From Bacillota bacterium (GTDB taxonomy: Bacteria > Bacillota > Ch66 > Ch109): a stretch of DNA of 64,000 nt. The stretch is from positions 576,001 through 640,000 of the forward strand of contig JBMNLH010000001.1 in assembly GCA_050952625.1 (NCBI GenBank), in the 5' to 3' direction. Under the pieces are notes generated by a model. That model worked only from the letters and a program-made list of their open reading frames with translations, was not told where the DNA came from and ran no database searches. Positions 3,218 to 41,578 of this stretch are shown piece after piece. The position numbers were made by a program, and so were the translations under genes. Each line of letters begins with the position of its first letter. Position 1 is the stretch's first letter.

Positions 3218-3338
3218 CATAAAGTATTGATAACTGGCTTGTACGTGGCTCTTCGTATAAGGGGCATATTATATATCCGCAACTAGTGTAATGATCTTGT
3301 TTGCCGGACTAATAAACAGCGTAAAAAAATTTAAATAA

Positions 3339-3446
3339 TTATCTCCGAGCCTAGTTACCCTAAAGGTTTTCAAGCCCATGGGTACAGGCCGATAGGGTGG
3401 CACTGGAAACGGTGTTGCCTCCCCGTTAATTTTGGAAAGGAGATGA
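3339..3446 (+). ncRNA. Moco-class riboswitch, P3-less (tungsten-cofactor-associated) variant
   Basis: CTCCGAG..CCTAA..GGCCGATAGGG..TGGAAAC..GCCTCCCCGT..GGAAAGGAG, with P1 TTATCTCC/GGAGATGA. There is no P3 between GCCG and AGGG. Confidence 0.85.
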
Positions 3447-3472
3447 TAGTCCTCTAATAGGTTTATTTTATT

Positions 3473-9847: not shown

Positions 9848-10148
9848 GCCGCTTAAGGTGACTGAGGAGGTCAACCCGATTGAGGGAGTTCTCAACATTG
9901 GGGATGTCATGCTGGTTTTTGCTTGTGGGCTGATGCTGGCTCTGTCCGTTTACTGGAACATCGATCTGGGCCCCATGGGCAAGCGCGTTGACCTGAATCG
10001 GGGACGGGAGGTGACAGAAGTACCGGGGATACGCAATGATTTGATTGAAACCCAGGGCCAGGGAAAGCTCTATGAGAAAATGGGCACGGTCTATAAAGAC
10101 CCGGCAACGGGGCAACTCTTTATGCTGACTGAAAGTAGCGGTGGATAG
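9810..10148 (+). CDS. DUF2149 family protein (ExbD/HmuV-like partner)
   Basis: NPIEGVLNIGDVMLVFACGLMLAL TM segment with Asp, and a G.G..MGTVYKDP.TG C-terminus. It overlaps the ExbB-like gene. Confidence 0.82.
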   Translation: MNVDGGLRSRRHRPLKVTEEVNPIEGVLNIGDVMLVFACGLMLALSVYWNIDLGPMGKRVDLNRGREVTEVPGIRNDLIETQGQGKLYEKMGTVYKDPATGQLFMLTESSGG

Positions 10149-11689: not shown

Positions 11690-11708
11690 ATACCCGATAA
11701 AATCATAT

Positions 11709-11805
11709 TGCTCCGAGCCCCGTGACCTAAAGGAAACTCCCCAAGGTCACTGCGCCGATAGGGTTCGCCTGGAAACGGGCGAGCCTCCCGTTGTGGAAAG
11801 GAGGC
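11709..11805 (+). ncRNA. second Moco-class riboswitch, P3-less variant
   Basis: CTCCGAG..GTGACCTAA..GGTCAC..GCCGATAGGG TTCGCC TGGAAAC GGGCGA GCCTCCCGT TGT GGAAAGGAG. Confidence 0.85.
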
Positions 11806-11823
11806 TTTTTATCCGGATAACTG

Positions 11824-11944: not shown

Positions 11945-14900
11945 GTGAAAGGGAAAAAAACGGTCCGAAGTTGGTATCACCTTTTGCCATTTGTCCTGAG
12001 TGTGTTTCTATTGGCCGGTATGTTCGGTCTGTTGGCACCCGCAGATGCTTATGCTGCAGGACAAGGTATTACCATATCGGGACCCGGATTAAATGAACCC
12101 GAGGGGGTAGCATTTACCCAGGACCAACTTGAGAACGATTTACCACAAACTATCGAATACTACAGCACCATCAATACCTGGCCCACCAAGAGCTGGTATG
12201 GAGGGGTGGGCGTTAAGCTAACTGACCTGCTTGAAGCAGCTGGAGGGCTTAATGAGCAAGCGACGCAGATTAGAATTATCTCCGCAGACGGTTTTAAAGC
12301 GACATTTACCTTGCAGGAACTTCTCGGCGAAACCAGGTATCGTTTTCCTAATTTTATGGATACCGGTCTCCCTGGCCATCTTATTGGGGATGCATCTGGT
12401 GCGGAGCCGGTAGAACCCATAATTGCTTACAAAAGTGGTTCTGGTCATACAATAGCTGATGTCATGAACGAAAGTAACTTGAAAGATGGCGATGCTAATC
12501 ATCTACTGTACGGGCAGCGGGCGGTAACCCAGCAGACCAACGCCAGGTTCTCCAAGTATGTAACAGCAATTGAAGTACTTACTGAACCCGCCCCTCAATG
12601 GGACGTACCTACAGCATCAGTAGTGCCTGGAGAGGTGCCGGTAGGTACCCTGGTGGAACTGAAGAGTAAATTTAATGATGAGGACAAGATTCATTATACC
12701 CTGGACGGCAGTGACCCGACCATAGAAAGTCCCATGTATAACTGGATTGCCAGCCGTTGGTGGTCTTCAAGACAGGATGATTTAGATGATATAAATCGCC
12801 CCATTGAAATTACAGAAGATACTACAATCAAGGCCATTGTAATCGGCCCTGGCCGGGCGGACAGCGAAATTGTTGAATTCACCTATACAGTAGATAAATC
12901 CGCAACTGTGGCGGTTTCAGGTGTAAGTATTAGCGAAAGTGACCAGGAATTAGAGAAAGGCCAGACAGTCAAACTCAATGCTTTAGTGACCCCCGCAGAT
13001 GCCACCAATAAGAATGTAGGCTGGTCCAGCAGTAACGATGCTGTGGCTACGGTGAGCGCAACTGGCCTGGTAACCGCAGTGGCAGAAGGCACCGCGACTA
13101 TTACGGTTACTACTGAAGATGGCGAATTTACTGATTCGATTACCGTCACTGTAACCGCTGTGCCGGCATCGGATTTTGTAGTAGAAAACGGCGTTTTGAA
13201 AGAATACAAGGGCGCCGGAGGTGATGTGGTCATCCCAGGTAATCTGGGCATAACCAGTATTGGGTATCCTGCGATTCAGTATGCGAACAGCAGCCTTACC
13301 TCCGTAGTCATTCCCGAGGGTGTAACTACTATTGACGGTCTTCGGCATTTGATAGGTTGTGGACTAGCTTAACATCCGTAGTCTTGCCCCAGAGCTGTAA
13401 CCGGAATTGGGGCAAGGGCCTTTTGCAGAATGCACTAGTCCTTCGTGAAATAAACATTCCTCAAGGTGTTACCAAAATCGGAGACGAGAGACGTTTTGGC
13501 GTTGCTATGCCCTTGAAAATATAATTCTTCCCAACAGTCTCACCAGCATTGGCGAAGCGAGCATTTCGGCAATGTACCGCTCTATCTGAGATAAACATAC
13601 CCGAAAGCGTTACCGATATTGGGCCAAAAGCATTTCAGAGTTGTAGCAAATTAACAGAGATAGTCATTCCCAATAGTGTTGCCAGCATTGGAGACAGAGC
13701 CTTTTATAGATGCAGCGCTCTTACATCTGCAACTATTCTAGGTACTGATACTGCCTTGGGAGCTGAGTTGTTTGACCAATATCCCGCAGGGACCCCCAGG
13801 GTGGTAACTATACATGGTTATCGCGGCTCTACTGCCGAAGCGTACGCAACTGAGAATAGTATTCCTTTTGAAGCCATAGACGCAACTGTAGCGGTTACTG
13901 GCGTAAGTATTACTGAAAGCGACCAGGAGTTGAAGGTCGACGAGACCGTTCAGCTTAATGCCGTCGTTGAGCCAGCGAATGCCACCAACAAGAACGTCAC
14001 CTGGTCCAGCAGTGATGAAAGTATTGCCACGGTAGACGAAAACGGTCTGGTAACCGCAGTGGCACAGGGCACTGTCACCATTACGGTGACCACCGAAGAT
14101 GGGAACTTTACCGACAGCATCACCGTCAATTCGGTCCCAGTTGGCCCACAGATACTGCTGCGCTGCAACTCCGGAATCCCGGAGGCGAACGTATTCATCA
14201 CCGGCAGCGGTTTTGATGTCGGCGCGGTGGGAACAATCTGGTTCGACACCAACAATAATGGAGTCCTGGACGATGGTGAGCCGTCAGTTGATGTGAAGAC
14301 TGATGCGGATGGGGCTATCCCCTTGCTCACGAGTCTAACTGTTCCTTCAGTAAGTACGGGCAACTACACTGTGCAGGCTGATGTCCCGAGCGGGGATGGC
14401 ATCGAAGCTGCCGCCGTCTTCACTGTAACCGACGTCGGCATAATCGTTGGCCCAATCAGTGGAAACAGTCAAGGACAGGGTGATGTCAGATATATCACAG
14501 TTACCGGCAGCGGTTTTGCCCCCAGCACCGGCTATAGACTTTTCTGTGACCGAAATGGGAATGGGATCTTCGATGATGGTGCTTACAAGTCTGGTACTAC
14601 AACAGCTGACGGTACAGTGTCAGTGAATAATATGTCTTGGCCGGCATCGCCGACAGGTATCTACAATATCCTCTTAGACATTAATAAAGATGACACCATA
14701 GAGGCTTCAGCCAGCATCGCGATTACTCCGGGTATTAAAATTAGCACTCCCAGAGGTGTCCCCGGAGCAAATATCGGTATGACTCTTGTAGGTTTTTCGG
14801 CGAATGAGACCGGGTATGTCTGGTTTGATACAAATGGTAACGAAGTCTGGGATGAGGGCGAGAACCAGTTACCTGTAACAACCAGTGGTGGCGGGTCAGT

Positions 14901-17900
14901 TAATACCTCCGGCTTGATCGTACCTTCCGTATCGCCAGGAAACTATCAGGTTTGTACCGCAATACCGGCCTGTGGTCTCAAAGCTTCAGCCACCTATACT
15001 GTCACTGGCTTGACACTGAATCCCAATTCAGGGACAGCCGGCACGAGCATAGACATTCTGGGTTATGGATATGTGGCTAACCAGACATCCGGCAAGTATA
15101 TTTGGTTTGACACTAACGGCAACGGCTCTTGGGATGCTGATGAAAGCAAGGTAGACGTAACCACCGATGCCAGCGGTACCCTGTCTCCTGTTTCTCTTAC
15201 TGTCCCGGCAGTGCCCGCTGGTACCTATAATGTATGTGCTTCCGTTTTTCCCAGTGGAACCTTCGCGGTTTTCACTGTTAAAGATCCGCCGGCAATTGAC
15301 ATTCTCTACGACGGGACAGTCACTTTAAATGCAGGTGAGACCTTTACGGTGACCGTCGATGCTAATGAATATATAATTAATGAGAACACACCACTGGGTG
15401 CGCTTCATAAAGCCTCAATTGCCAGTGGCTTCAGCTATGCTGTTACGGATAAGAAATACCAAAATTCAGGTATTCTTCTTTTAGATGATATAGGAAGTTA
15501 TCCTTATGTAAAGAGTGGCAGTGAATGGTACGCCTATGTGAATGATGTTTATAAAGATGGCTATGAAAATTCTAATAATGCCCTAAATCTTGTTGAACTT
15601 GTGGATGGGGATAAGGTTGAGTTCTACTACGCCGACATTGACTCGACCGACCTCAATGCGGTAAAGACAGCGGCTACTGCGGCAGTGTTAATCGTTGTTG
15701 ATTCCGATGCAACCACACCATCTGACTGGACGCTTCAACTCTCAGGTGCCAAAGAGGAAACTGTAACTAAAGCCTATTTTGAGCAAGGCCTGGCCTGCGC
15801 ATCATCTAGTCATCAGGTGTCCTGGACTGATGGAGACGGTAATACCTGGGGAGGTGTACCCTTATGGCTGCTGGTAGCCATGGTTGATGATGACCCGGAT
15901 GCTGGTGATAAGCACATCAATTTTAACGACGAGCTTGCTGTCCAGGACTATGAAATTAAAGTAATAGCCGGCGATGGCTGGTCGACTACCCTGAGTAGTG
16001 CAGCTATCGCCCGCAGTGATGCTTATATTGTCGCTAATACCCTGAACGGAGAACCGTTGCCGCTTAAGACCGAATCAGGCAAAGACTGCTGGCCGCTCTA
16101 TCTTAAAGGTTCAGCTATCTCTGGCGGACAGCAGGTAGGCAATATTGTTCGTATCGAACTGTCTGGTCTGCCTGAACCAACTGCTGGATGGACACTGGAG
16201 ATGATCGGAGAAGTAGGGGACACCATAACACAAGAGGAATTTGAAGACGGATTGGCCTGTACTGGCTCCGGCCATTACCAGGAATGGAAAGATAAAGACG
16301 GAAACCTTTGGTCCGGTGTGCCACTGTGGGTACTTCTAGGAGCAGTGGACGACATTGAGACCGGAGCCCACTGGACTTTCAATAATGAACTTGCCTCAAG
16401 TTATAGCGTTAAAGTAATTGCTGGTGACGGAAATTATTTCAAGACCTTTGCTGGTTCCGATGTGGCCGAAAGCAACGACTATATTGTAGCGAATAAATGC
16501 AATGGTGAAGCACTTACCGGTTCATCCGCACCACTGCGCCTAGTCGGGGATGGTGTTACCAAAGATGATGGCTCACTCGGAGGCCTAGCTGTTGGTAACA
16601 TCGCCCGGATAGAAATACCTGAACTGCAGACGCCGGCCGCTGAACCTGGCAGCTGGAATCTGGCCTTGAATGGTAAGATCAGTGATGTGATTTCCCAGAC
16701 TGAGTTTGAAGCTGGCCTGGTCTGTCCAAATTCGGGACACTTAAAGCAATGGAAGGATGCTGACGGTAATGTCTGGTCAGGGATACCCCTTTGGTTACTG
16801 GCTGGCTGGGTAGATGACCGAAAGCCCCACAGTTACGATTATAATCAGGCTGTGATTGGTTACAAAGTCCTGGTGAAAGCTGGAGACGGCTACAGCGTCG
16901 ATTTTGCGAGTGCAGAAATCAATAAGAGCAGCGACTATATTATTGCGAATAAATTCAACGGTGTGCCACTTACTGATTCGGGACCACTGCGTCTGGTTGG
17001 CACTGGTGTTGCCAAAGACGATGGCTCCCTGAGCGGAAAAAGCGTCGGGAATATCGTGGAGATCGAGCTGACCTCCTTCGCGACCGGCGGTGGTGGAATC
17101 ATCCCCGAACTCCGTATTGTCAAGTATGCTGAAGACGGCACTACCATCCTGGCCGAAGAGACCCTCAATTACATCGACATGAAGGATCGGTTCAAAGTGA
17201 TTGGGGACGGGACTACGGTATATAAATTCCAGGGAATTACCAATGACCCGGAAAATATATGGGACCCAGAGGAAACCAATCTCGGCGGTTTTAAGATAGC
17301 CAATGCTGTAATGGGCACCCGCCTCAAAGACCTTTGTGAACTGGTTGGTGGTATGGGAGCAGGAACCGAAATCGTCTTAGCTGCCAATGACGGTTATGAA
17401 ACCAAGCTTCCCTATTCCTCCATCTATACTGACCCATCAGTACAGGCCCGCCAGGGGGATGCCATTCTGGCCTGGTATGCTGACGGTAAGTATGTTCCTG
17501 AGTATCGCGATGGTATGCGCTTATTCTTTACGCCGGAGGATACGGTTTATAGTCAGTGGGATATGCACGAGACTCTGCCGGAACCATACTGGCATTACTA
17601 TGGTGCTGAGGGGGTTATGTATCCTTCTTGTGCTGGTTTGTCAGCCAAGTACATTACCGAAATCAAGGTATACTCCGTGCCCCAGGGTGATTGGACACTG
17701 GAACTCGATGGTCAGGATATTGGTGGTCTGAAGACTGATATAAGCAAGACCTATTTTGAATCAGCCCTTACCTGCCAGTTTGGTGCTAACCACAAGGCAA
17801 CCTACACCGATTCTAAAGAACGAACCTGGGAAGGTATGCCGCTGTGGTTCCTGGTTGGCTTCGTCGATGACGCTGACCAGCATTCCAATAACGCCTATAA

Positions 17901-18480
17901 TGATGCTCTGGCCGAGTCAGGGTATCAGGTGGTAATCACTGCAGAGGACGGCTATTCGGTAACAATTGATAGCACAGATCTTGGCCGGAACAATAACTAC
18001 ATTATCGCCAACTCGCTGAATGGAGCGACTATTCCTGAAACTGATGAAAACTGGCCGCTCCGTCTAGTTGGACCAGCTGTTACCGGAACTAACTCAATTT
18101 CGCAGATTGTAAGTATTAAGTTGGTGAGCTCAGAACAGGTTGATCCGGTTTACACAGTATCACCTGTGGCTGATGCCGCTTATACTGCGGGGACTAATCC
18201 GGACGGCATCAATACCATGACCGTTAATACGGGTGTATCCGGGTTCAAATACTTCACGGTTGATATCGAACCGGTGGCCTCCCACAGCGGTGATGAAACC
18301 GTGGTCTTCACTCATTTACGAAACGGTATTCAGCTGCAGATCAACTCTACTAGAGCCGACTTTGATGAGGTTGATATTGCTCAGGCTGGTTTTAATGTTC
18401 AATCCGGGGATGTTATCAAAGTTTACATCGTGGATGAGCTGACCAATGCCACTGACCACAACCCGGTGATTCTGCAGTAA
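11945..18480 (+). CDS. giant (~2170 aa) secreted protein, frameshifted in its LRR region: Oxidored_molyb-like + FN3-associated, Big_2, BspA-type LRRs, Big_2, Ig-like repeats with DxNxNG loops, DUF4430-like domain, 5 divergent Oxidored_molyb-like repeats, conserved C-terminal domain
   Basis: ORFs 11945-13372 and 13549-18480 are bridged by a continuous LRR pattern (LxxxxIPxxVTxIGxxAFxxC) that changes frame at 13340-13560. Repeats read W.GVPLW.L...VDD...A.DG...D..YI.AN..NG....PLRLVG. Confidence 0.72.
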
Positions 18481-18606: not shown

Positions 18607-20175
18607 ATGATACCTGAATTGGAATACAAAAAAAGGAAGCATCCGGGGGCTAGCCGGATAAGCTGCCTGCTTATAGTCCTCTTCGCCCTTTTTTGCTCCT
18701 GCTGTTTCCCTGCGGCTGCTTGGGCTGAGGAAGTCACCCGACCCGGGCAGATTATTTTAACCTGGACCCAGGACCCGGCTACATCCCAGACGATTACCTG
18801 GTTAACACCGGATGCTGAGGCGAATAAGCTCCAGTACGCCGAGTCATCAGGCTTTGACGGTGATTTTTCCGACGCCGGACTAATTACCGCAACTAGTGAG
18901 CAATTTGCCGGCGGCGATAATTACCGGTATACAGTCACGATTACCGAATTGAATCCCGGTACGCAATATGTCTACCGGGTGGGCAGGGACGGAGCCTGGA
19001 GCGAGATATTGTCTTTCTCGACTTCCGCTGATCCAGATGACTTCACATTCTTATACCTGGGTGACGTTCAGGAAGGGTATGCTCAGTGGGGCAGTATGGT
19101 GGAGCAGATTTACGAAGAGAATCCAGAGATTAAGTTTGCCTTATTGGGGGGAGATTTAACCAATGGTGACAGCGAATCCGAATGGGAACAATTCCTTGGT
19201 ACTGCAACAGGTGTATTTTCCCGGATACCGATGATGCCGGCCAAGGGTAACCACGATGGAGATTTATTTTTGGAGTTCTTTTCCCTGCCAGATAATGGTC
19301 CTCCGGGGGCAAACGGTAATTTTTATTCCTTTGATTATGGTGATGCTCATTTTGTAGTATTAGATACCAGCAACATTATTACTGATAGTGTCAAACAATG
19401 GCTGCAAGAGGACCTGCAAAATACGGATAAGAAGTGGAAGTTTGCCGTCTTTCATCACCCTCCTTATCAAAATTTTGATGATAATAAAACTATCGATGAT
19501 GCTCTTCGTGAAAACTGGGTACCAACATTAGAGCAAAACCAGGTTGATATGGTCTTTGTTGGGCACCAACATGTCTATATGCGAACCCATCCTATCTTCC
19601 AGGAAGAAGTACAAAGCGATTCGTATGGAATTGTCTATGTGATGGGGAATTCCGGTTCTAAACATTATAGTCTCGGGGAAGGTTTTCCCTATATTGCCCG
19701 AGAGGAGTCGGGCAGCAACTATCAGGTGATTGAAATTCAAGGGAATTTTTTAACTCTGACGGCCAGGAAAGCGGATGGTGAACTGATTGAAACCTACACC
19801 ATCGGAAAAGGAGATACACCGGTTGAGGAGGAAGAGCCACGTTATACGGTCATTCCTGATGAAACCGACCCAACCTATACCCCGGGCAGCACTGAAGATG
19901 GCATTTGTACCTTGACTGTGAACCCTGGTATATCGGGATTTAATTATTTAAGGGTCGGTATTACTCCGCGCGTCTCTCATAGCGGCGAGGAAACCGTGGT
20001 CTTTATTCATTTAAGAGACAACGATCAACTAGGGCTTAACGCCACTAGAACTGATTTTGATCAGGTAGGTACTGCCCAGGCTGGTTTCAACGTAAAAGCC
20101 GGTGACGTGATCAAGGTTTACATCGTCGATGCGTTGACCAATGCCGAAGACCACAATCCAGTAATCCTGCAGTAA
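18607..20175 (+). CDS. secreted purple-acid-phosphatase-like metallophosphoesterase with a C-terminal domain shared with the upstream giant protein
   Basis: Signal peptide, FN3-like Y.YRVG, motifs GDVQ, GGDLT, GNHD, HHPPY and GHQHVY, and a C-terminus ending ..HNPVILQ. Confidence 0.85.
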   Translation: MIPELEYKKRKHPGASRISCLLIVLFALFCSCCFPAAAWAEEVTRPGQIILTWTQDPATSQTITWLTPDAEANKLQYAESSGFDGDFSDAGLITATSEQFAGGDNYRYTVTITELNPGTQYVYRVGRDGAWSEILSFSTSADPDDFTFLYLGDVQEGYAQWGSMVEQIYEENPEIKFALLGGDLTNGDSESEWEQFLGTATGVFSRIPMMPAKGNHDGDLFLEFFSLPDNGPPGANGNFYSFDYGDAHFVVLDTSNIITDSVKQWLQEDLQNTDKKWKFAVFHHPPYQNFDDNKTIDDALRENWVPTLEQNQVDMVFVGHQHVYMRTHPIFQEEVQSDSYGIVYVMGNSGSKHYSLGEGFPYIAREESGSNYQVIEIQGNFLTLTARKADGELIETYTIGKGDTPVEEEEPRYTVIPDETDPTYTPGSTEDGICTLTVNPGISGFNYLRVGITPRVSHSGEETVVFIHLRDNDQLGLNATRTDFDQVGTAQAGFNVKAGDVIKVYIVDALTNAEDHNPVILQ

Positions 20176-20452: not shown

Positions 20453-22684
20453 ATGATGCACAGGATAATTAAGCGCAGGATAATTGTGTTTCTCCAAATC
20501 GCCTTACTGCTGATGATGTGTTTTCCGGCTGTTGTAATGGCAGATAGTTCACCTCAAATAAGTGTGTCGTTGAGTAAAACTACGGCACCAGTTGGCGATA
20601 GCGTGACCGTTTCCGGTACAACGGCATCAGGCGCATGGGTCCCCCTTAAAGTGATTGACGAGGCAGGAAATATAGTAGTATTCGATGCCGGAAAGGCAGA
20701 TCCGAGCGGTAATTACAGTATTGGTTTCATTGTGCCAGCCAGTGCTTCCGGTACATTAACGGTTGTTGTCGGGGAAGGCAGTGGAGTGGCGACCAGTCCC
20801 CTGACTGTGGGAACCGCAGCACCGAAAGCTTCACCAACAAGCGGGTCAGTAGGTACCGGCACTAAAGTGACCTTAATGTCTACAACCGTTGGGGCGAAGA
20901 TTTTCTACACCCTAGATGGCAGTATCCCAACTCAAAACAGCGTAGAATATACCGGTCCAATTACTATTAATGAGTCTGTTACCATCAAGGCCATCGCCAT
21001 TAAGGCTGGTATGAGTGCCAGTACCGTGCTGACCGAGTCGTATACAGTTATTGAATCGATAGTAGATGAAGAAGTAGAGGTTACCGATTCTAATAAGGAA
21101 CTGGCTATAACCGAGGAAACAAAAAGCCTGGGTACCCTCGTCCAAATCAGCGTGCTTGATAACGTGAATGATGCAAAGATCAGTGTCAGTGCGCTTATGA
21201 ATCCCCCTGAATCTGGCATGGTGACCACCAGTGAATTGCCTGCCCTGAACATAGCAGCCACTGACACTTCTTTCAGTTCTGCTCCCATTCAGGTAGCAAT
21301 ACCGGCCGGAGCAAAAATAAGTGCGCCGGAAGGCTGGAACGGCACCATTAACGTTCCTACTGTTCAGCCGGCTAATACGGTAACAATCGATCCGGATCCT
21401 GGCCAAAAGGTCACCGTCAATAGCGTAATCGAGGTTGGCTATGGTGACATACCACTGACTTTTGACAAAGCCGTGCGCCTTGCCATCCCCGGCCAGGCCG
21501 GCAAGGATGCGGGCTACTACCGAAACGGTGAGTTTACTAAAATCCCCAGTTTACCGTCAAATGCTCAGGATGACCAAGACTGGGCGGATGCTAACATAGC
21601 TCCCGGTAAGGATGGCAAGATGGATGTCGGTTCGGACCTAGTCATTTGGACCAAGCACTTCACCAAGTTTGTCAGCTATACGCAGACTGCCACCGGTAGC
21701 CCAGGTGGCGGCGGTGGTGGCACTCCACCATCAAAGGCGGTTACCTCCACTACCGGGTCGGCCAAAGTTACCCCCAGTGCTGGTGGCACCATCAGCCTCG
21801 GAGATGAGGCTACTATTAAAATACCGGCCAATGCCTTAGCCGGAACCAATGCTGTGGAAGTGAAAGTTACAAAAGTGACTGCCCCTCCCGCCGTACCGGC
21901 CGGCTTTAGGCTAGCGGGCAGCGTTTACGAGTTCAGTGTGGGCGGTAAAGATAGCTATAGCTTTGATAAGGAAGTGACTATCACTCTTAGTTTCGATCCC
22001 AATGCTCTCAAACCGGGTGAGACTCCGGCCATTTACTATTACGATCAAAATGCAAAGAAGTGGGTCAAACTTGGCGGTGAGGCAACTGACAACGCCGTAA
22101 CTGTAAAAGTGGATCACTTTACCCAGTTTGCCGTAATGGCGGAGCCGGCCTCGCTAGATCAAACCTTAACCGACATTACCGGCCATTGGGCGGAAAACCG
22201 GATTAAAGAACTGGTTGACCTCGGGGCTATCAGCGGTTACCCAGACGGCACCTTCAGGCCGGACAATAACATCACCCGGGCTGAATTTGCCACGATTCTG
22301 GTCAAAGCGTTTAAACTCGAACCGCAAAGCGGCAAGGTCTTTGCCGATACTACCAGCCACTGGGCTAAAGACACCATCGCTACAGCCGCAGCTTACGGCA
22401 TCGTTAACGGTTATGACGGTAATACCTTTGGCCCTAATGATCTGATTACTCGTGAGCAAATGGCCGCCATGATGGTGAATGCGCTCAAACTAACGCCGGT
22501 GACAGAAGAAATCTCGTTTATAGACAGCGGCAGCATCTCGGGCTGGGCTAGGGCAGCTGTGACCACAGCAGTGAATAACGGGTTAATCAACGGCTACCCT
22601 GATAACACCATCCGTCCCCAGGGCCAGGCTACCCGGGCTGAAGCGGCAACAATCATGGTGAATGCGTTACAAGTAAGAGGGTAA
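20453..22684 (+). CDS. S-layer (3x SLH) scaffold-like protein with Ig-like, FN3-associated and ZU5-like domains
   Basis: Signal peptide, FYTLDGSIPT and WTKHFT. Its SLH repeats are nearly identical to those of 3588-7286. Confidence 0.8.
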   Translation: MMHRIIKRRIIVFLQIALLLMMCFPAVVMADSSPQISVSLSKTTAPVGDSVTVSGTTASGAWVPLKVIDEAGNIVVFDAGKADPSGNYSIGFIVPASASGTLTVVVGEGSGVATSPLTVGTAAPKASPTSGSVGTGTKVTLMSTTVGAKIFYTLDGSIPTQNSVEYTGPITINESVTIKAIAIKAGMSASTVLTESYTVIESIVDEEVEVTDSNKELAITEETKSLGTLVQISVLDNVNDAKISVSALMNPPESGMVTTSELPALNIAATDTSFSSAPIQVAIPAGAKISAPEGWNGTINVPTVQPANTVTIDPDPGQKVTVNSVIEVGYGDIPLTFDKAVRLAIPGQAGKDAGYYRNGEFTKIPSLPSNAQDDQDWADANIAPGKDGKMDVGSDLVIWTKHFTKFVSYTQTATGSPGGGGGGTPPSKAVTSTTGSAKVTPSAGGTISLGDEATIKIPANALAGTNAVEVKVTKVTAPPAVPAGFRLAGSVYEFSVGGKDSYSFDKEVTITLSFDPNALKPGETPAIYYYDQNAKKWVKLGGEATDNAVTVKVDHFTQFAVMAEPASLDQTLTDITGHWAENRIKELVDLGAISGYPDGTFRPDNNITRAEFATILVKAFKLEPQSGKVFADTTSHWAKDTIATAAAYGIVNGYDGNTFGPNDLITREQMAAMMVNALKLTPVTEEISFIDSGSISGWARAAVTTAVNNGLINGYPDNTIRPQGQATRAEAATIMVNALQVRG

Positions 22685-22752
22685 GCAGGTTCAGAAGCTA
22701 GATAAATACTGAAGCGAAATCAAATCAAAATATCCGAGGGACCTTTCTCGAC

Positions 22753-22782
22753 GGCGGAGAAAAAAGAAATTTTTTCTCCGCC
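22753..22782. terminator. strong stem-loop (terminator or mRNA stabiliser)
   Basis: GGCGGAGAAAAAA-loop-TTTTTTCTCCGCC. Confidence 0.5.
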
Positions 22783-22906
22783 CAACTTCTGTCTGATCCT
22801 ATTAACGTTTTCTTAACAGATTTTATTACATTAGTAGCCACTTTTGTCTGATCCCTATAAACCTTATAGGATAAATTAGGATAATATAGTTAGGGAGGCA
22901 TCCTGG

Positions 22907-23467
22907 ATGCAGCGTTTTTATTTATGGAAAGAAAAAGCAGCCGTTGTTGCTTTGTTGTTGTTTTTGGCCGTTTGCGGCTTAGGATGTGGCGGTACTCCGG
23001 CCGAGAAAGCTGTTCCCGGCGTATTGTTTATTGAGGGTAATGGTGTTGAGGGTAAAGTTTCCATCACCCTGGAGGAGTTAAAATCTATGCCGGATGGTCT
23101 GGTAGAAGCTGATTATTTCTCGATTAATTCATATGGGACCAAAAAATATTTTCATTTTAAAGGTATTTGGGTGTGGCATGTTTTAAGGGAAAAGGTTACT
23201 TTGAAGGATTCTGCTGCCAAGGTTGCCTTTATCGCAGAGGATGGCTATAAGGTGGAATATACCCTGGAAGAGGTAAAGCGGGAAGATTATATCGACGAAC
23301 AAAACCCCGAGACAAAATACAAGATGATCCTGGCCTGGGAAGAAAACGGACGGGAATATGACCTGGATAATGGCAATCCCTTTCAACTGGTCGTTGGGCA
23401 GCGAGAGCCCGGGGATGTAAACAAACCCTACTGGGTCCGGAATATAAAGACCATCCGCATTGATTGA
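22907..23467 (+). CDS. lipoprotein with an Oxidored_molyb-like domain
   Basis: Lipobox-like GLGC, then YFSINSYG..FKGI.V..VL..A..V.F.AEDGY...ILAWEENG..PFQLVVGQ..WVRNIKTI. Confidence 0.75.
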   Translation: MQRFYLWKEKAAVVALLLFLAVCGLGCGGTPAEKAVPGVLFIEGNGVEGKVSITLEELKSMPDGLVEADYFSINSYGTKKYFHFKGIWVWHVLREKVTLKDSAAKVAFIAEDGYKVEYTLEEVKREDYIDEQNPETKYKMILAWEENGREYDLDNGNPFQLVVGQREPGDVNKPYWVRNIKTIRID

Positions 23468-23547
23468 GCCGAGCCTGACCGGCCGGGTAGGAGGTTATCT
23501 GAAGCGAAAGACTCCAACGACGTTCACACAGGGAGGGTCTAAACCAT

Positions 23548-24631
23548 ATGGAAGAAAAAATAAATGGCCAAAGGAAATACTACCTGAGCAACCGGGACCT
23601 GTTGATTATCGCGGTATTGAGCGGTATCGGAGGGGTGATGAGCACCTATATCGGCTATTTGGGCAATTTGTTAAACCGCGTTTTCGGCGTTCCCTTCGGT
23701 GCCGGGCAGTTTGTGTCCGGTCTGCACGTTTTTTGGTTCATCCTGGTAGCGGGGCTGGTCAGGAGGCCCGGTGCCGCTACGGCCGCTGGCTTGCTCAAAG
23801 GAGTAATCGAACTGCTCACCGGTAGCACCCATGGGGTTGTGATAGTCCTGATTTCTCTGATCCAGGGGTTGCTGGTCGATGTTGTCCTGCTGCTTACCCG
23901 GCGGCACAATTTACTAAGTTACATGTTGGCTGGCGGAGTGGCGGCTGCATCGAATGTATTTGCCTTTCAACTCCTCTATTTTTCCGGTGCTCCCATGACC
24001 TACCTTCTCCTAATTGGCCTTATGGCCCTTGTTTCAGGTGCTCTTCTGGCGGGCAGCTTCGGACACAGCGTCCTGGAGGTTGTGCACCAGGCCAGACCCT
24101 TTCGTTTTGCGGGTGGATCAGAGGAAGAGCTGGCCGCCGGAGTCACACCAAATGGTGCTAAGAAAAGACTCACCCCCCGTTGCCGGCTGGCAGTCACTAC
24201 CCTGCTGCTGGTGGTGTTCGCGAGTGGGGCGGTTTATTACTTTGTCGCGGTCTTTGAACCTCCCTGGGTAGGGGCCTCGTTGTCAAGTAGCAGGGGCAGT
24301 GCAAAAACCTCTATCTTTTCAGCTCTCCGACTTCGACCAGTATGAAACGACCATAACCGCTGAATTAAAGGGACAGGTTAGTTACGTTCCGCCCCAGGAG
24401 TATACTGGTATACCCTTAAGGATAATTCTTCAGGAGGCCTCGCCTTTGGATGAAGCGAAAAAGCTTAGGGTCATGGCCACCGACGGCTATGAGGTGGAGT
24501 TTGAACTGGAAAAAGTATTTAATGACGATCAGATGCTGCTGATCCGAGAAGGGGATATGCTGCGCCTGATTGCTGGCAATTACGATGGCGGATACTGGGT
24601 GAAGCTGGTTAACCGGATAATCGTGGAGTGA
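23548..24631 (+). CDS. ECF transporter S component (YkoE-like) fused to a C-terminal Oxidored_molyb-like domain; one frameshift
   Basis: Multi-TM protein with LVRRPGAA..LLKGVIELL.G and QGLLVD. Removing one G at 24271-24274 joins it to PRCQVAGAVQKP..YTGIPL..ATDGY..LRLI..YWVKLV. Confidence 0.75.
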
Positions 24632-24821
24632 ACTCGTTTCGGCTTCGTTGAACATCTAGCTCGGGGCTTCAGATGAACTCCTCCTGAAGTTTACACATTG
24701 CAACTACTCATGCATCAAGGATACAACCACCTATGATAATAGTGGCCATATGTCATCCTGAGCGTTAGCACTATTTATCAATAACCACTTATAGAAATGA
24801 AAGTCTTTTGATTCAGATAAG
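24629..24821 (+). mobile_element. small MITE-like element (family A) with a nested family-B/REP fragment
   Basis: TGAACTCGTT..GCT..TGAACATC..CTTCAG..CTGAAG..CTTATAGAA..GTCTTTTGATTCAGATAA, shared with 30329 and 48705. The insert at 24701-24769 is the reverse complement of family B. Confidence 0.6.
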
Positions 24822-24848
24822 CTCTTCTGTTAGCTGGAAGGAGTTTTT

Positions 24849-26405
24849 ATGGTAGAACCGGTTGTTGACATTCAGGAACTCTCTTTTATTTATCTTGGTT
24901 CGAATTCTCCGGCCCTGGAAAAGATTAACCTGCAGGTCTACCCGGGCCAGTTTCTGACAATAACGGGTCCCAGCGGGTGCGGCAAATCCACGTTGGCTCT
25001 GTGCTTGGCTGGCTTTATCCCCCATGCTTATAGCGGGAAAATGGAGGGGACCGTCCGGATAAAGGGCAGAAACACCCGGGACTATCCCAGTGGCGGGCTC
25101 TCCGGCATAGTGGGTTTGGTGCAGCAGGATCCGGAGGCCCAGCTTTGTACCCTGACAGTGAGCGATGAGGTGGCCTTTGGGCCGGAAAACCTGTGTATCC
25201 CGCCAGAAGAGATCCAAGCGCGATGCTATTTTGCCTTGCAAGCGGTAGGTGCCCTGGATTTAAAGGATAGAAAAGTGTACACACTTTCCGGAGGCGAAAA
25301 ACAACGGGTGGCGATTGCCTCTGTGCTGGCGATGAATCCGTCGCTGCTTATCCTGGATGAACCGACAGCCAACCTGGATCCTTCTTGTACCAGGGAGGTG
25401 CTCCAAACTCTAAAAAAATTGAGAGAGGAACAGAAAATCTCGATTATTGTGATTGAGCATCGCCTGGAAAGACTTATCCCTATATCTGACCGCTTGTTGC
25501 TGATGGAAAAAGGAAAAATTATAGGGGAAAGCACGGCTAAAGAGTTCCCTAATAAATATTTCCCGGCCCTTAGCTCGACAGACACCAGCACTGTTTGGCC
25601 GCTGGAGAAACCATCAGCCCTTGAGAAGCAGGCCGAGAAAACGCCCCTTCTGACAATAAAGAATCTTAGAGCTGGGTATGAGGGAAGAAATGTTCTCTCG
25701 GGAATCAGTTTTTGCGCTTATCCCGGCGAAACCATTGCCCTCATGGGGAATAATGGGAGCGGTAAAACTACCCTTTTAATGGCCTTGCTGGGAGTGCTTA
25801 AACCTGAAGCAGGGACAATAATCAACCTTGAAGGACAAGATATAACCGGCGTCAAGGTTACCCGTCGTGCTCAGGACATGGGGCTTACCTTTCAAAATCC
25901 GAACCACCAGATTTTTGAACATACCGTGACTAAAGAAGCAACCCAGGCAGCCCGTTTTTTGAGTAAGAATGCCCAACCAGAAATTGAAGACAGAGTCAAT
26001 CGACTATTAGAAAGGTTCGAGTTGCGGCAATATCGAGATAAGAATCCCTTTACTTTGAGCTTGGGAGAAAAAAAGAGGCTGACTTTGGTTTCCCTTCTGG
26101 CGTATTCTCCCAGGATCTTAATCCTGGATGAGCCCCTCGTTGGTCAGGATAGGGACCGGCTTGACCTTCTTATCGCCGCGCTGCAGGAGCACCGGGCGCG
26201 AGGAGGAGTAACTTTGATGGTCTGCCATGAACCAAATGTGATTGCCTCCTGCTGTCAAAGGGTTCTTTTCCTGGCCAATGGAAAGCTGATCATTGATGCC
26301 CCGGTGAATATAGCCCTGGCAGAATTGGCCCAATTAGGGATGGAAGAGTATTTGCCTTCTGGGTATGAATTTTCTTCATCAGGTGAAAGAAGGTCAGACA
26401 GATGA
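24849..26405 (+). CDS. ECF transporter fused dual ATPase (EcfAA', YkoD-like)
   Basis: GPSGCGKST, LSGGEKQRVA, LDEPT; second cassette GNNGSGKTT, LSLGEKKR, LDEP. Confidence 0.9.
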   Translation: MVEPVVDIQELSFIYLGSNSPALEKINLQVYPGQFLTITGPSGCGKSTLALCLAGFIPHAYSGKMEGTVRIKGRNTRDYPSGGLSGIVGLVQQDPEAQLCTLTVSDEVAFGPENLCIPPEEIQARCYFALQAVGALDLKDRKVYTLSGGEKQRVAIASVLAMNPSLLILDEPTANLDPSCTREVLQTLKKLREEQKISIIVIEHRLERLIPISDRLLLMEKGKIIGESTAKEFPNKYFPALSSTDTSTVWPLEKPSALEKQAEKTPLLTIKNLRAGYEGRNVLSGISFCAYPGETIALMGNNGSGKTTLLMALLGVLKPEAGTIINLEGQDITGVKVTRRAQDMGLTFQNPNHQIFEHTVTKEATQAARFLSKNAQPEIEDRVNRLLERFELRQYRDKNPFTLSLGEKKRLTLVSLLAYSPRILILDEPLVGQDRDRLDLLIAALQEHRARGGVTLMVCHEPNVIASCCQRVLFLANGKLIIDAPVNIALAELAQLGMEEYLPSGYEFSSSGERRSDR

Positions 26406-27241
26406 GTTTTTATCGTAATACTGTCCAGAACCGGATGGCCTCTGTTGTAAAGGGATTTTTCCCCGGCCTGACCTATGTGGATCAATGTTCCCGGTTGCAC
26501 CGGGTTCATCCTTTGGTCAAATTGGTTTTGCTTCTTAGCTTCAGCTTAACTGTTTTTGCTGTACCTTCTTGCCTCGGGGGAATTATTCTTTTCGGCCTGC
26601 TGCTTATCGGTTATGGTTTGGCCGGATTAGGCCTGGGCTTTTTTACGCGCAAGCTTCGCTTTATTCTTGTTTTTGGCCTGTTTATTTTCCTGATCCAGCT
26701 TATTGCGGTCAAAGAAGGCGTTTTGCTCTGGCAATTGTTCCTGGGGCCGATATACTTTTCAGTTTGGTCAGAAGGCCTTTTCGGCGGCTTAAGGATGATG
26801 CTGCGCTTGGTTAATATTATTGGTTCCAGTTATCTATTTGTCGCTACGACCGATCCGAACCGGCTCGCTTATGCCCTGATGCAGGCCGGGCTACCGTACC
26901 GGTTTGGCTTTATGCTCATTACCGCCCTGCGTTTTATTCCTATTTTTCAACTGGAACTGGAGCAGGTGAGGAATGCGCAAATGGCTAAAGGAATTGAAAT
27001 GGAGGGGCTTTCGCCGCGGAAACTCTTAAGGGCGGTCCGGTATCTGCTGGTACCGTTGGTGATATCTACGTTAAGCAAGGTTGATTATCTGACCATTTCG
27101 ATGGAGAGCCGGGCTTTTGGCCTCTATCCGGCAAGAAGTTACCAGCATTCCCAGGCCTTATCGAGGAATGATAAAATAGCCCTCTTTGTAGTTCCTCTTT
27201 TTTTTGGCCTTTTTACTTTCTTTCTAAACTACCTAAAGTGA
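26402..27241 (+). CDS. ecfT: ECF transporter transmembrane T component
   Basis: LHRVHPLVKL, ALRFIP, AQMAKG and MESRAF coupling motifs. Confidence 0.88.
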   Translation: MSFYRNTVQNRMASVVKGFFPGLTYVDQCSRLHRVHPLVKLVLLLSFSLTVFAVPSCLGGIILFGLLLIGYGLAGLGLGFFTRKLRFILVFGLFIFLIQLIAVKEGVLLWQLFLGPIYFSVWSEGLFGGLRMMLRLVNIIGSSYLFVATTDPNRLAYALMQAGLPYRFGFMLITALRFIPIFQLELEQVRNAQMAKGIEMEGLSPRKLLRAVRYLLVPLVISTLSKVDYLTISMESRAFGLYPARSYQHSQALSRNDKIALFVVPLFFGLFTFFLNYLK

Positions 27242-27372
27242 AACCGATATTCGCCATATAAAAAAATGAACGCCAGGGAAAAGCGACTCCCAGTGTTTTG
27301 ACATTTTTGTACGATTCCTGAAAGCTTTGATCAAGCGGTTTTACTGGTTTTATTAATCAAAAAAGTTATTGG

Positions 27373-27399
27373 GAAGGAAATCCAAGCCAGATATGGAAT
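27373..27399 (+). promoter_or_regulatory. SigH-like promoter
   Basis: GAAGGAAAT...GAAT (AGGA-N17-GAAT). Confidence 0.4.
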
Positions 27400-27542
27400 A
27401 ATAAAGAGAGAGCATAGAAATTTATTGCTTAAGACAAACTAATATAATAGTTGATTAGAGAGGTTTTTTTATTTCTGGTGGCCTTATGCTGTCTAATATG
27501 TTATCTGGCACTGAAGGGAACGATCAGCAGGGGGTGTGAAAA

Positions 27543-29447
27543 ATGGAAAAGTTACTGGTCGCGGCAATTCAATACGAGCCCGCTATGTTTGCCTATGAAG
27601 TCAACCGGGAAGAGCTTTATCACCTGACGGAAAAGGCAGCCGCCAGCGGAGCCAAGATTATTGTCCTGCCCGAAATGGCGACAACTGGTTATGGCTGGTC
27701 CAATCGGTGGGAACTAGCACCGTATGTGGAAACGATTCCCGGACCAACCACTGAGCTTTTCTCGAAAATTACCCGAGAGTATGGCTGTTATGTAGTAATT
27801 GGTCTGGCAGAAGTTGACCCAGTAACTGGTATTTACTATAATGCCGCCGCCTTAGTTGGCCCGAACGGACTAGTGGGACGTTACCGCAAGACACATCTCT
27901 TTGTGGCTGATCCGCGATGGGCCGCTGTCGGGGATTTAGGGTTTCCGGTCTGGGAAACGGAGTTTGGCCGGCTGGGAATCGCTATTTGTCTGGATCTGGA
28001 GTTTCCGGAAGTCGCTCGAGTGCTAGCTTTGAAAGGAGCTCAGATCATAGCTTTCCCCTGTAACTGGTTGGGCGAAGTCTGTCCCTCCGGTATCTGGATG
28101 ACCCGAGCCTTGGAAAACGAGGTTTGTCTGGTGGCGGCTAATCGCTGGGGACGAGAGAGGGGGGTTAAATTTAGCGGCGGCAGTTGCGTTATTGGGCCGC
28201 AGGGGAATATCCTGGCTTTTCGGGGCAACGGCAATGGAGTTGTGGCTGCGGAGCTGTCTATACGTCTGACGAAGAGTGCTCCTGAACCGGCTTCCTCGGT
28301 GACAGAAAGTAATCAGGAACCGGAACGGCAGCTGGATCAGCAGACTGATGAGCAGAAGGAACTCCAGTTAAGGGAAGAATCTGCTTCTAGCACCCGGTTG
28401 GAACACAAACAGTTAGAGCCACTCGACGGTAGTTTTCGCCTGCCGGGAGATTATCTAATGAGACGAAGGCCGGACCTCTACCATCAGTTAATGTGCGCCG
28501 GCCATCTCTGGCGGCCAGAGACATTTTTTGGCCTTGACCGACACAGCCCACTCCCCGAAGGCCGTGAATCGCTCGTTGGATTAATTCAGTTTGAAGCCGT
28601 CCCAGGTAATCGAGATGCCAATCTAACGCGAATACAACAGTGGGTAACCCGGGCTAAGCAGGAGCAACCTGGGTTGCAGTTGTTAGTTTTCCCAGAACTG
28701 GCTAATACCGGTTTGGTAACGAATAAAATGTCAGAATTAGCTGAGTCAATTCCCGGCGCCACTTCCACCTTCTTAAGTCAAGTAGCAGTTGAACATGCCA
28801 TTTATCTGGCTTGGGGCATGGCTGAACGGGGAGAAGACGGATCGGTGTATATTACAGCCGTCTTAGCCGGTCCGGATGGTCGGATTTATACCTATCGAAA
28901 AGTTCATCTATTAGCCCGGGATGAGGTCTGGGCCCAACGGGGATCGGCTCTGCCTATGCCAATTGATACCTCACTTGGTCGAATTGGTCTGCTTCTGGGG
29001 ACCGACCTTCTTTTCCCCGAGGCAGCCCGCTGTCTGGCCAACCAGGGAGTGGATTTAATCGTAGTGCCGGCTGCTTTAGCCGGACCAGGGCCAGTCGGTC
29101 TTAGTCCAGAACAAAATTTAGAAATCTGTTCAGCTAAGATTAATGATCCCTACCACTGGTCAGTCTGGCGAGTCCGCGCCTGGGAAAACAGTGTATATTT
29201 AATAGTCGCCAATAAAGCCGGCAAAGGTGAAGTGCGGCGAGGTTTGAACCTGAGTGGGATCTTTGGCCCGATTGCCTACGAACGATCGGAGGCGGCTCAG
29301 GAAATCCTGACGGATTCGATGGAAGGTATGCTAGTTAAGACAATCAGTACTAGTCGTACTACGCGAGAGGGACGCCGGGTCCGGGCGAAGGATAATCTCC
29401 GACGCCGACAGATCGGTTTGTACCGGGAATTAGTGTTGCAGGGGTAG
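27543..29447 (+). CDS. tandem two-domain carbon-nitrogen hydrolase (nitrilase superfamily)
   Basis: Domain 1 has LPEM/YRKTH/AICLD; domain 2 has FPEL/YRKVH/LLGTD. Confidence 0.85.
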   Translation: MEKLLVAAIQYEPAMFAYEVNREELYHLTEKAAASGAKIIVLPEMATTGYGWSNRWELAPYVETIPGPTTELFSKITREYGCYVVIGLAEVDPVTGIYYNAAALVGPNGLVGRYRKTHLFVADPRWAAVGDLGFPVWETEFGRLGIAICLDLEFPEVARVLALKGAQIIAFPCNWLGEVCPSGIWMTRALENEVCLVAANRWGRERGVKFSGGSCVIGPQGNILAFRGNGNGVVAAELSIRLTKSAPEPASSVTESNQEPERQLDQQTDEQKELQLREESASSTRLEHKQLEPLDGSFRLPGDYLMRRRPDLYHQLMCAGHLWRPETFFGLDRHSPLPEGRESLVGLIQFEAVPGNRDANLTRIQQWVTRAKQEQPGLQLLVFPELANTGLVTNKMSELAESIPGATSTFLSQVAVEHAIYLAWGMAERGEDGSVYITAVLAGPDGRIYTYRKVHLLARDEVWAQRGSALPMPIDTSLGRIGLLLGTDLLFPEAARCLANQGVDLIVVPAALAGPGPVGLSPEQNLEICSAKINDPYHWSVWRVRAWENSVYLIVANKAGKGEVRRGLNLSGIFGPIAYERSEAAQEILTDSMEGMLVKTISTSRTTREGRRVRAKDNLRRRQIGLYRELVLQG

Positions 29448-41385: not shown

Positions 41386-41499
41386 AATCTAACAAATTAT
41401 ATAAAATGTTGGTTTGTTTCTCAGTATCTTGTTAAATGTTACTTATTAATTGTTTATTTCGTCTATTAAATAAGATTTTAGACTGACTAGTACATATTG

Positions 41500-41578
41500 A
41501 TAAAGGCAAACTTGGTGAAAACCGAGGACGCAAAACCACGGGCCTAAAGCATAATGCTACGGCGGCCGGGTTGCCGAA
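41500..41578 (+). ncRNA. cyclic di-GMP-I (GEMM) riboswitch
   Basis: AAAGGCAAAC..GAAA..GACGCAAAACCACGGGCCTAA..GCCGGGTTGCC. Confidence 0.88.

Follow-up and report, generated by a model that had tools for sequence, protein, structure and literature searches.

What does a transporter of the energy-coupling factor (ECF) type import when its S component is fused to an outer domain of the sulfite-oxidase (SUOX) type and a lipoprotein of the same fold is encoded beside it? The question is raised by five open reading frames (ORFs), all co-directional on the + strand, at 22907-27241 of a 64,000-nt stretch from a Bacillota bacterium (contig JBMNLH010000001.1, positions 576,001 to 640,000), referred to here as the window. 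Our answer, to which we give a probability of about 0.6, is that they encode a dedicated group-I ECF importer salvaging the pyranopterin cofactor of tungsten (Tuco) or molybdenum (Moco) enzymes, or its metal-pterin core, from anoxic surroundings. Since the sequences place the system under cofactor-sensing RNA switches and in archaea that appear unable to make the cofactor, it may be the first microbial uptake system for the ready-made W/Mo cofactor, and is put forward here as a candidate.

Architecture of the transporter

22907..23467 (+): gene of a probable lipoprotein with one SUOX/PruR-like domain, 186 aa; PF00174 Oxidored_molyb 6.3e-7 (Pfam)
23548..24631 (+): S fusion gene (YkoE family, seventh transmembrane helix and outer SUOX/PruR-like domain), lying here in two frames
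23548-24345 (+): first frame of the S fusion, 265 aa; PF09819 ABC_cobalt (YkoE family) 1.6e-21 (Pfam)
24271..24274 (+): GGGG run with the one-base insertion that splits the S gene (sequence, P0002 alignment, run contigs)
24299-24631 (+): second frame (+1) of the S fusion, 110 aa; PF00174 1.1e-6 (Pfam)
24849..26405 (+): fused ECF A-A' ATPase, 518 aa; PF00005 ABC_tran in two stretches, 8e-62
26402..27241 (+): ECF T component, 279 aa; PF02361 CbiQ 2.5e-28; its start overlaps the A-A' stop by 4 bases

The S fold, A, A' and a CbiQ-type T are all there, and the system is therefore a group-I ECF transporter with a dedicated module. The A-A' ATPase matched the ECF ATPase models TIGR04521 (1e-98) and TIGR04520 (2e-98), while the T component reached 1.3e-18 with TIGR02454, which is under the cut-off of that model (NCBIfam). 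The PF00174 match of the lipoprotein is weak, yet above threshold, and the two matches to this profile at the locus span no more than its positions 62-160 and 16-158 of 169. A/T genes follow S in all loci with at least 4.5 kb of downstream sequence (32/32 bacterial and 15/15 archaeal).

The first-pass annotation, made from the letters alone, had read the locus as a YkoE-like S component continuing, after repair of one G, into an extra helix and an Oxidored_molyb-like domain, with a lipoprotein of the same fold upstream and a dedicated AA' and T downstream. All of these elements were recovered by the Pfam matches listed above and by the structure models described below. With respect to the repair, a natural homologue of 360 aa and 98% identity (P0002) has GGG instead of GGGG and reads ..WVGPRCQVAGAVQ.. 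through the break site, and contigs from public metagenome runs of two studies (X1 and X7) equal window 23900-24700 except for one letter fewer at 24271; they are not fully independent of the assembly, as one run may be its source, though the intact form exists. Given the intact gene in P0002, X1 and X7, the split is an assembly error or a strain-private lesion and no trait of the gene family. Two contigs of run X10 stop at 24272/24273 and say nothing firm on the break, nor does the single 171-base contig of RNA run X18 over 24495-24663 say anything firm on transcription. A scan of 22500-27700 for promoters and terminators gave counts in line with chance (8 where 5.6 were expected, and 8 where 6.5 were).

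Homologues were searched with a read-through carrying four wrong residues (ASLS for PRCQ), which is also the first row of the locus alignment. Among 8000 candidates scored, 591 proteins had E<=1e-3, and all 120 of them that were listed are fusions of 297-369 aa covering 81-100% of the read-through. Taking one genome per species, 202 stretches encode a relative; in all 80 loci that were kept (57 bacterial, 23 archaeal), the match reaches the C-terminal domain. The fusion, whose constancy among homologues the first-pass annotation had left to be checked, is thus full-length throughout these sets. The bacterial carriers are Bacillota (Syntrophomonadaceae, Dethiobacteria, Pelotomaculum, Thermovorax, Anoxynatronum and Desulfosporosinus), and the 23 archaeal records belong to Hermod-/Odin-archaeota, Thermoplasmata and 'Methanobacteriota'. 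In a tree of 52 fusions, eight archaeal rows fell on one side of a branch (support 87/53), beside two high-GC Bacillota.

The AlphaFold model of P0002 (52-row alignment, pLDDT 81.8) comprises helices at 15-182, a disordered basic linker at 184-208, the seventh helix at 210-235 and a confident beta domain at 244-360. Its helical part resembles thiamine-bound YkoE, 5edl (Foldseek target TM-score, TMt, 0.76; 27% identity; root-mean-square deviation 2.3 over 171 columns), and together with the PF09819 match this identifies the six-helix ECF S fold. As the C-terminus of an S component lies in the cytoplasm, the extra helix would place the beta domain outside the cell, adjoining the lipoprotein. Among the ECF S components met in this analysis, it is the first to bear an outer capture domain as a covalent extension, and the system is an ECF transporter variant with a tethered capture domain and a probable new substrate class.

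Moco-type riboswitches

11699..11819 (+): Moco-type riboswitch lacking stem P3, RF01055 74.4 bits, at the head of the run of co-directional genes whose last members are the ECF genes
3331..3458 (+): second P3-less Moco-type riboswitch, RF01055 68.1 bits, heading SUOX-like surface proteins and a MotA/ExbB-DUF2149 pair

P3 is deleted in the alignment of both window aptamers, and this form is described as associated with the tungsten cofactor (Regulski et al., PMC2408646; Eubacterium limosum, PMC11725836). Rfam also placed RF01055 matches on the same strand upstream of the operon in relatives, and a covariance model built from 15 of these gave 32 sites in the window and the 80 loci (81 sources). 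In 19 of the 57 bacterial loci, as in the window, a site lies upstream on the same strand with solely co-directional genes before S, and in five (L032, L040, L046, L048 and L049) it lies at most 385 nt from S or overlaps the called S start; the same model found none in the 23 archaeal loci. In the loci most closely related to the window, long genes for surface proteins lie upstream, so that the 8-kb flanks mostly stop short of a site; in the window the distance is 11.7 kb. RF01055-type aptamers are accordingly placed where they are predicted to control the operon in many bacterial relatives. Seven such aptamers were counted in the genome to which the window belongs.

Other sites of this type were also seen in the loci. 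In Anoxynatronum (L031 13251-14034, and L033 at the same coordinates) a Moco-type riboswitch stands immediately before the gene of a different ECF S component of small size (PF12822, 178 aa), which may be a second cofactor-related S using a shared module. Separate Moco-type riboswitches precede giant proteins in L030 (11504-17065), L034 (11489 onward), L042 (12276-17032), L048 (~12270 onward) and L049 (~11820 onward); these proteins lie downstream of the ECF genes and have up to eight SUOX-like domains. In two high-GC Bacillota whose fusions group with the archaeal ones, the aptamers (L070 2996-3132 and L080 5525-5664) are 137 and 140 nt long against ~120 elsewhere, and perhaps carry P3.

Scarcity of cofactor biosynthesis genes in archaeal carriers

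Among the genomes of the 80 loci, 48 carriers (29 bacterial, 19 archaeal) were examined for aldehyde ferredoxin oxidoreductase (AOR) and for cofactor biosynthesis, with the following result.

AOR (AFOR_N): 47/48 genomes; archaea 19/19
MoaC: bacteria 23/29, archaea 2/19
MoaA C-domain: bacteria 24/29, archaea 2/19
MoeA_N: bacteria 24/29, archaea 2/19
MoaE: bacteria weak matches only, archaea 4/19

Five bacterial carriers are without MoaA, MoaC and MoeA together. Two closed archaeal chromosomes, G036 and G039 (CP070736 and CP070732), have the system and 1 and 4 AOR genes, respectively, and in them neither MoaA, MoaC, MoaE, MoeA or MoaB nor any protein with PF00994, PF13531 or PF12849 was found, so that known Mo/W binding proteins are missing as well. 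In a sample of 121 genomes of an Asgard-type phylum, the fusion was present in 31, MoaC in 66, both in 0 and neither in 24 (Fisher p 4e-14 for fusion against MoaC), and AOR in 118, including all 31 fusion genomes. In a sample of 151 genomes from the Thermoplasmata-type class of one of the two closed chromosomes, 24 had the fusion; AOR was present in 24/24 of these and 61/127 others, and MoaC was absent from 20/24. Restricted to AOR-positive genomes of this class, the numbers with and without MoaC were 4 and 20 with the fusion against 43 and 18 without it (Fisher p 8e-6). The same pattern is seen in Asgard archaea, again in Thermoplasmata-type archaea, and also in a few Bacillota. A transporter that replaces the synthesis of a cofactor while the enzymes depending on it stay would most simply be the importer of that cofactor. 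It must be noted that archaea without MoeA, two of them with closed genomes that also lack a known Mo/W binding protein, would need a metal-loaded form.

The window's own genome has three DMSO-reductase-family loci. Two DMSO-reductase-family genes in it, at C8 43952-45226 and C1 1137770-1139107, have one in-frame TGA each and are likely selenocysteine formate dehydrogenases.

Lipoprotein and outer domains

The product of 22907..23467 is called a probable lipoprotein on account of its N-terminus, which is signal-like and includes a Cys in a lipobox-like setting, conserved across the 23 relatives aligned, and is proposed to be an extracellular ligand-capture protein. No RR motif was seen in its N-terminus by eye, without a predictor of twin-arginine translocation (Tat). 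Its AlphaFold 2 model (pLDDT 88.1) gave the same Foldseek list as the C-domain of the fusion, in agreement with the common fold that had been claimed. It matched SorA at 1.7e-6, and its TMt was 0.74 with PruR 7kom, 0.67 with 7kp2 and 0.43 with YedY, the range over the PruR structures 7kom, 7kp2, 7kos, 7kou and 7rkb being 0.66-0.74. The outer domain of the fusion matched the sulfite dehydrogenases SorA and SoxC, YedY and PruR, the latter at TMt 0.58-0.61. The best Foldseek E-values to the sulfite-oxidase family (SorA, SoxC, YedY/MsrP) were 1.1e-6 to 4e-5. In hidden Markov model (HMM) searches of PDB sequences, the C-domain matched the sulfite-oxidase family only (SoxC 1.3e-6), and the lipoprotein profile matched nothing significantly (best E 0.035, a cellulase); PruR gave no match at this level.

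Neither the outer domain of the 52 fusions nor the mature part of the 23 lipoproteins keeps an invariant Cys, the position equivalent to the Mo ligand being judged without structural superposition, and by their sequences these domains are therefore not molybdoenzymes. The SUOX-like domain cannot be a cytoplasm-loaded, Tat-exported enzyme. What is invariant or nearly so in the 52 and 23 sequences is D312-G313-Y314 with W350 in the fusion and D112-G113-Y114 with W176 in the lipoprotein. The order of D-G-Y and Y-W-V is that of the N-x-Y and Trp of the pterin sandwich of PruR, a likeness of motif order only and not of superposed residues. The Cys-less SUOX fold of PruR is reported to bind pterins (PMC11194511), and such a shortened fold can serve as a pterin receptor (PMC11194511, PMC13259868).

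The S-component pocket

The thiamine contacts reported for YkoE are Tyr46, Trp49, Glu77, Gln95 and Asp131, of which Glu77 and Gln95 hold the aminopyrimidine and the stacking Trp49 is termed highly conserved by the authors of that structure (PMC5037267). The HMM alignment to 5edl pairs them with Ser57, His60, Glu88, Gln106 and Gln141, so that of the five contacts Glu and Gln alone are retained; His60, Glu88 and Gln141 are invariant in 52 fusion sequences. With Glu and Gln retained, an invariant His standing in for the stacking Trp, and Tyr46 and Asp131 also altered, the predicted pocket fits a heterocycle related to, but other than, that of thiamine. No riboswitch for thiamine pyrophosphate (TPP; RF00059) was found in the window at Rfam gathering scores or in the 17 loci scanned with Rfam, and a scan of 22400-25000 at E<=5 gave nothing but a chance-level snoRNA match, which bears out the first-pass remark that none is visible upstream. 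No thiamine genes recur in the 80 neighbourhoods. With the TPP riboswitch absent and Trp49, Tyr46 and Asp131 replaced, thiamine is unlikely as the substrate.

Conserved gene neighbourhood

When the ORF calls of the 80 loci and the window were clustered and the representatives annotated, a conserved order emerged: one or more SUOX-like secreted proteins, a metallophosphoesterase (often with its own SUOX-like tail), in some loci the lipoprotein, then the S fusion, AA', T and a Bud32/RIO-like kinase of ~245 aa.

SUOX-like gene upstream: 32/39 bacterial and 19/19 archaeal loci with at least 2.5 kb upstream
Metallophos among the four co-directional genes upstream of S: 26/39 bacterial and 11/19 archaeal loci with at least 2.5 kb upstream
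Kinase downstream: 11/32 bacterial and 12/15 archaeal loci with at least 4.5 kb downstream

In the kinase the catalytic Lys, Glu, Asp, Asn and Asp are retained, and Bud32 models matched weakly in 18/18 members. Genes for TupA-like binding proteins, accompanied by a permease and an ATPase, also recur nearby, as do those for MFS_MOT1, MobB, DUF364/DUF4213 and a TrmO_N-FmdE protein; in some loci TupABC or MOT1 lies within the same operon. None of the 80 neighbourhoods showed a DcpA-type diguanylate cyclase/phosphodiesterase. Serine dehydratase, MscS, CBS, amidohydrolase, GNAT and ATP-grasp genes, also noted beside archaeal loci, look unrelated to the system.

Proposed salvage route and alternative explanations

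From the architecture, fold likeness, riboswitch linkage, gene neighbourhood and phyletic pattern, all shown here, we infer the ligand, how it would pass from domain to domain, and what the phosphoesterase and the kinase would do. Wall- and lipid-anchored Cys-less SUOX/PruR-like proteins would capture the pterin outside, where the secreted metallophosphoesterase could trim it, e.g., by cutting dinucleotide forms or removing phosphate. The ligand would then pass to the domain of the same type that the seventh helix tethers to the YkoE-type S component, which would carry it across the membrane driven by the AA'T module. In many genomes it may be re-phosphorylated by the Bud32-like kinase encoded close by. 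That the ligand is trimmed outside and the phosphate put back inside is suggested by the presence of a phosphoesterase and a kinase, by analogy with other vitamin salvage. Expression would be shut off by the cofactor-sensing riboswitch when cofactor is plentiful, and bacteria with full pathways could use the imported cofactor as a supplement. The first-pass annotation had named W/Mo-pterin or a derivative as a new substrate of a group-I ECF. The Moco/Tuco riboswitches, the Mo/W-related neighbours and the archaeal fusion that replaces biosynthesis while AOR stays give support to this suggestion, without proving it.

More tentatively, and with slightly less than even odds, we consider that strict anaerobes, among them Asgard and Thermoplasmata archaea and syntrophic Bacillota, have a full cofactor-harvest pathway (from surface capture through trimming and ECF import to re-phosphorylation), that whole lineages gave up synthesis and depend on their neighbours, and that Tuco/Moco is a traded 'vitamin'. 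If the system does import the cofactor, it would account for archaea that have as many as nine AOR genes yet none for biosynthesis, Moco/Tuco would join the cofactors exchanged in anoxic communities such as digesters and sediments, and there would be a bearing on the partner dependence of Asgard archaea. The small soluble domain, the S component and cultivated carriers (Thermovorax subterraneus, Anoxynatronum, Desulfuribacillus) offer a testable handle.

Several points weigh against cofactor salvage. The identity of the ligand is a deduction, and free Moco is very labile. Control of the operon from 11.7 kb away presumes co-transcription to 27241, and the 222 nt separating the SLH gene from the lipoprotein gene contain a perfect 13-bp stem with a 4-nt loop (22753-22782), perhaps a terminator or processing site; folded as a whole, this gap does better than each of 200 shuffles (z -3.0). 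Most bacterial carriers keep biosynthesis (MoaC 23/29), and the window's own genome has MoaC and no AOR (completeness 95.9%), so that there the system would supplement synthesis and not replace it. The phyletic p-values ignore shared ancestry, and the incompleteness of metagenome-assembled genomes inflates absences; moreover, the fusion is also missing from 18 of the 38 AOR-positive, MoaC-negative genomes of the class sample and from the 24 genomes of the phylum sample that have neither. The kinase is absent from 21 of 32 bacterial loci with enough downstream sequence and was not found in the window's own genome in a one-protein search (a profile gave E 4e-4 inside a 628-aa frame), and Metallophos is missing from the Asgard loci. 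In addition, the truncated cleft of PruR is described as likely too short for whole Moco (PMC11194511), and P3-less riboswitches of E. limosum are reported also before operons annotated as iron ABC transporters (PMC11725836).

The first of these two reports bears on the explanation that the importer takes a smaller or earlier pterin, i.e., metal-free molybdopterin (MPT), cyclic pyranopterin monophosphate (cPMP) or an unconjugated pterin, which the cell then completes. In size the outer domains come nearest to PruR (134-148 aa; TMt 0.66-0.74), which according to the same source binds small pterins and probably not whole Moco (PMC11194511), and most bacterial carriers, with MoaA, MoaC and MoeA and with Tup/MOT1 beside the operon, could add the metal. 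Nevertheless, 17 of 19 archaeal carriers are without MoeA_N and 15 of 19 without MoaE, so that neither cPMP nor metal-free MPT could be finished in them by known routes, and G036 and G039 are also without known Mo/W binding proteins; we therefore regard this explanation as unlikely. The second report implies that riboswitch linkage alone does not fix the substrate, which might then be another scarce factor of W/Mo enzymes that the cofactor riboswitch also governs, e.g., a species of iron or sulfur, or some unknown part of a cofactor. This seems to us rather improbable, as it would leave unexplained both the loss of MoaA, MoaC and MoeA with AOR retained and the fact that every extracellular part is of a pterin-binding fold.

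Import of tungstate, molybdate or their thio-forms in place of a pterin was also considered, and purple-acid-type phosphatases do bind tungstate and molybdate as phosphate analogues. Transporters of Mo/W oxyanions are, furthermore, described as commonly under the control of Moco-type riboswitches (PMC2408646). An oxyanion importer should accompany cofactor biosynthesis, however, and in the Asgard sample this system does so in 0/31 genomes; the S component, which retains the pyrimidine-binding Glu/Gln, is a member of a vitamin-binding family and not of the CbiM/NikM metal type, and TupABC or MOT1 is already present in the same operons. This makes such a substrate very unlikely. Still less can be said for an ordinary YkoE-type importer of thiamine or hydroxymethylpyrimidine (HMP) in which the extra domain is structural or serves docking only. 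PF09819 (1.6e-21), the best structural match (thiamine-bound 5edl), the database names that label relatives thiamin/HMP permeases and a thiL gene 3.3 kb downstream would all agree with it, but the window and 17 loci have Moco-type riboswitches instead of TPP ones, the stacking Trp49 is an invariant His, Tyr46 and Asp131 differ and no thiamine genes recur in 80 neighbourhoods, for which reasons we hold it to be extremely improbable.

Comparison with known systems

The closest known transporter is YkoEDC, the group-I thiamine importer of B. subtilis (YkoE 5EDL), with which the system shares PF09819, the fold (TMt 0.76), a dedicated A-A'-T in the operon and the Glu and Gln of the pocket. It differs in its sequence (27% identity), in the seventh helix and the 115-aa outer domain, in the changes Trp49 to His, Tyr46 to Ser and Asp131 to Gln, in having a Moco-type and not a TPP riboswitch, and in that its partners are extracellular SUOX-like proteins and not the cytoplasmic YkoF. 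PruR of Agrobacterium, Vibrio and Klebsiella (7kos, 7kom, 7kp2, 7rkb) is likewise a small secreted Cys-less SUOX fold. It is proteobacterial, with Pro-Trp replacing the Cys, binds monapterin/neopterin and signals to the diguanylate cyclase DcpA, whereas the domain studied here, which occurs in Bacillota and archaea and under Mo/W cofactor control, either forms part of a transporter protein or is encoded next to one. The Moco enzymes of the sulfite-oxidase family (SorA, SoxC, YedY/MsrP) gave the best Foldseek E-values and the only HMM matches of the C-domain in the PDB, but the domains studied here have 110-150 aa, no invariant Cys, no dimerisation domain and no twin-arginine signal, and follow a membrane helix.

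In its logic, with many wall proteins carrying repeats of a single ligand-binding domain (up to 8 per protein) beside an importer, the system is similar to the Gram-positive heme Isd/Shr NEAT relays and the ECF heme/cobalamin importers, and one window protein has a Shr-like HID domain; the domains are unrelated, the ligand is different and transfer between domains is presumed here. Dietary uptake of Moco by C. elegans also concerns finished cofactor from other organisms, although in an animal, and the sources on it portray little as known of Moco movement (PMC7849362, PMC9793310). It was the only such uptake found in the literature, in which neither a prokaryotic Moco/Tuco importer nor a fusion of this kind was found, most subscription journals lying outside the coverage. 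Hundreds of genomes with orphan molybdoproteins have been left unexplained, for which unknown biosynthesis or metal-free forms were proposed and, in the text available of that study, salvage was not considered (Peng et al., 2018, PMC6147048).

Other features of the window and of related loci

The string headed by the riboswitch at 11699..11819 comprises, before the lipoprotein gene, the following genes.

11945..13372 (+): secreted protein with Ig-like domains, 475 aa; Big_2, Fn3_assoc
13549..18480 (+): giant surface protein with a SUOX-like domain, 1643 aa; PF00174 3.1e-18, Big_2, LRR_5, GEVED
18607..20175 (+): secreted purple-acid-phosphatase-like metallophosphoesterase, the conserved partner, 522 aa; PF16656 1.9e-21, PF00149 4.3e-17
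20453..22684 (+): SLH-anchored surface protein, 743 aa; SLH x3 4.9e-46, CHB_HEX_C_1, Fn3_assoc

The N-terminal stretch of the first of these is similar to the outer domain of S (profile A4 positions 198-322 at 11945-12334, E 8.5e-5).

The riboswitch at 3331..3458 is followed by genes at 3588-7286, 7410-9179, 9185-9847, 9810-10148 and 10474-11280 (Pfam). The first (+, 1232 aa, SLH-anchored) combines a SUOX-like stretch, the Shr-like heme-binding HID domain (PF07550 4e-23) and Ig-like domains. Inside the same string of SUOX-like surface proteins, a MotA/ExbB-like gene (9185-9847, +, PF01618 6e-9) is paired with a DUF2149 gene (9810-10148, +); the pair recurs in L002, L015, L020 and L069 (clusters 10 and 12) and may be an energiser for a surface apparatus in a Gram-positive-type wall. 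Just upstream of this riboswitch, 1642-2838 (+) encodes a LysR-type helix-turn-helix fused to a TupA-like PBP_like_2 domain and may be a regulator that senses tungstate/molybdate.

DUF364, with or without DUF4213 ('putative heavy-metal chelation'), follows T or Tup genes in L008 (7267-8142), L038 (11651-12382) and L042 (4750-5523), and the TrmO_N-FmdE fusion protein recurs nearby, e.g., at L042 1679-2470. In the window, a 300-nt gap after the T gene separates it from 27543-29447 (+), which encodes a protein of 634 aa with two carbon-nitrogen hydrolase (nitrilase-type) domains joined by an acidic linker and is not conserved beside the system elsewhere. The thiL gene at 30507-31583 (+; thiamine-phosphate kinase, TIGR01379 7e-94) is not conserved in other loci either, and its presence beside the system is therefore probably a coincidence. 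Finally, the window also contains a c-di-GMP-I riboswitch, a T-box leader and a 6S RNA at 41495-41578, 59401-59644 and 63058-63238, respectively (Rfam), and in L012 a c-di-GMP-I riboswitch lies downstream of the system.

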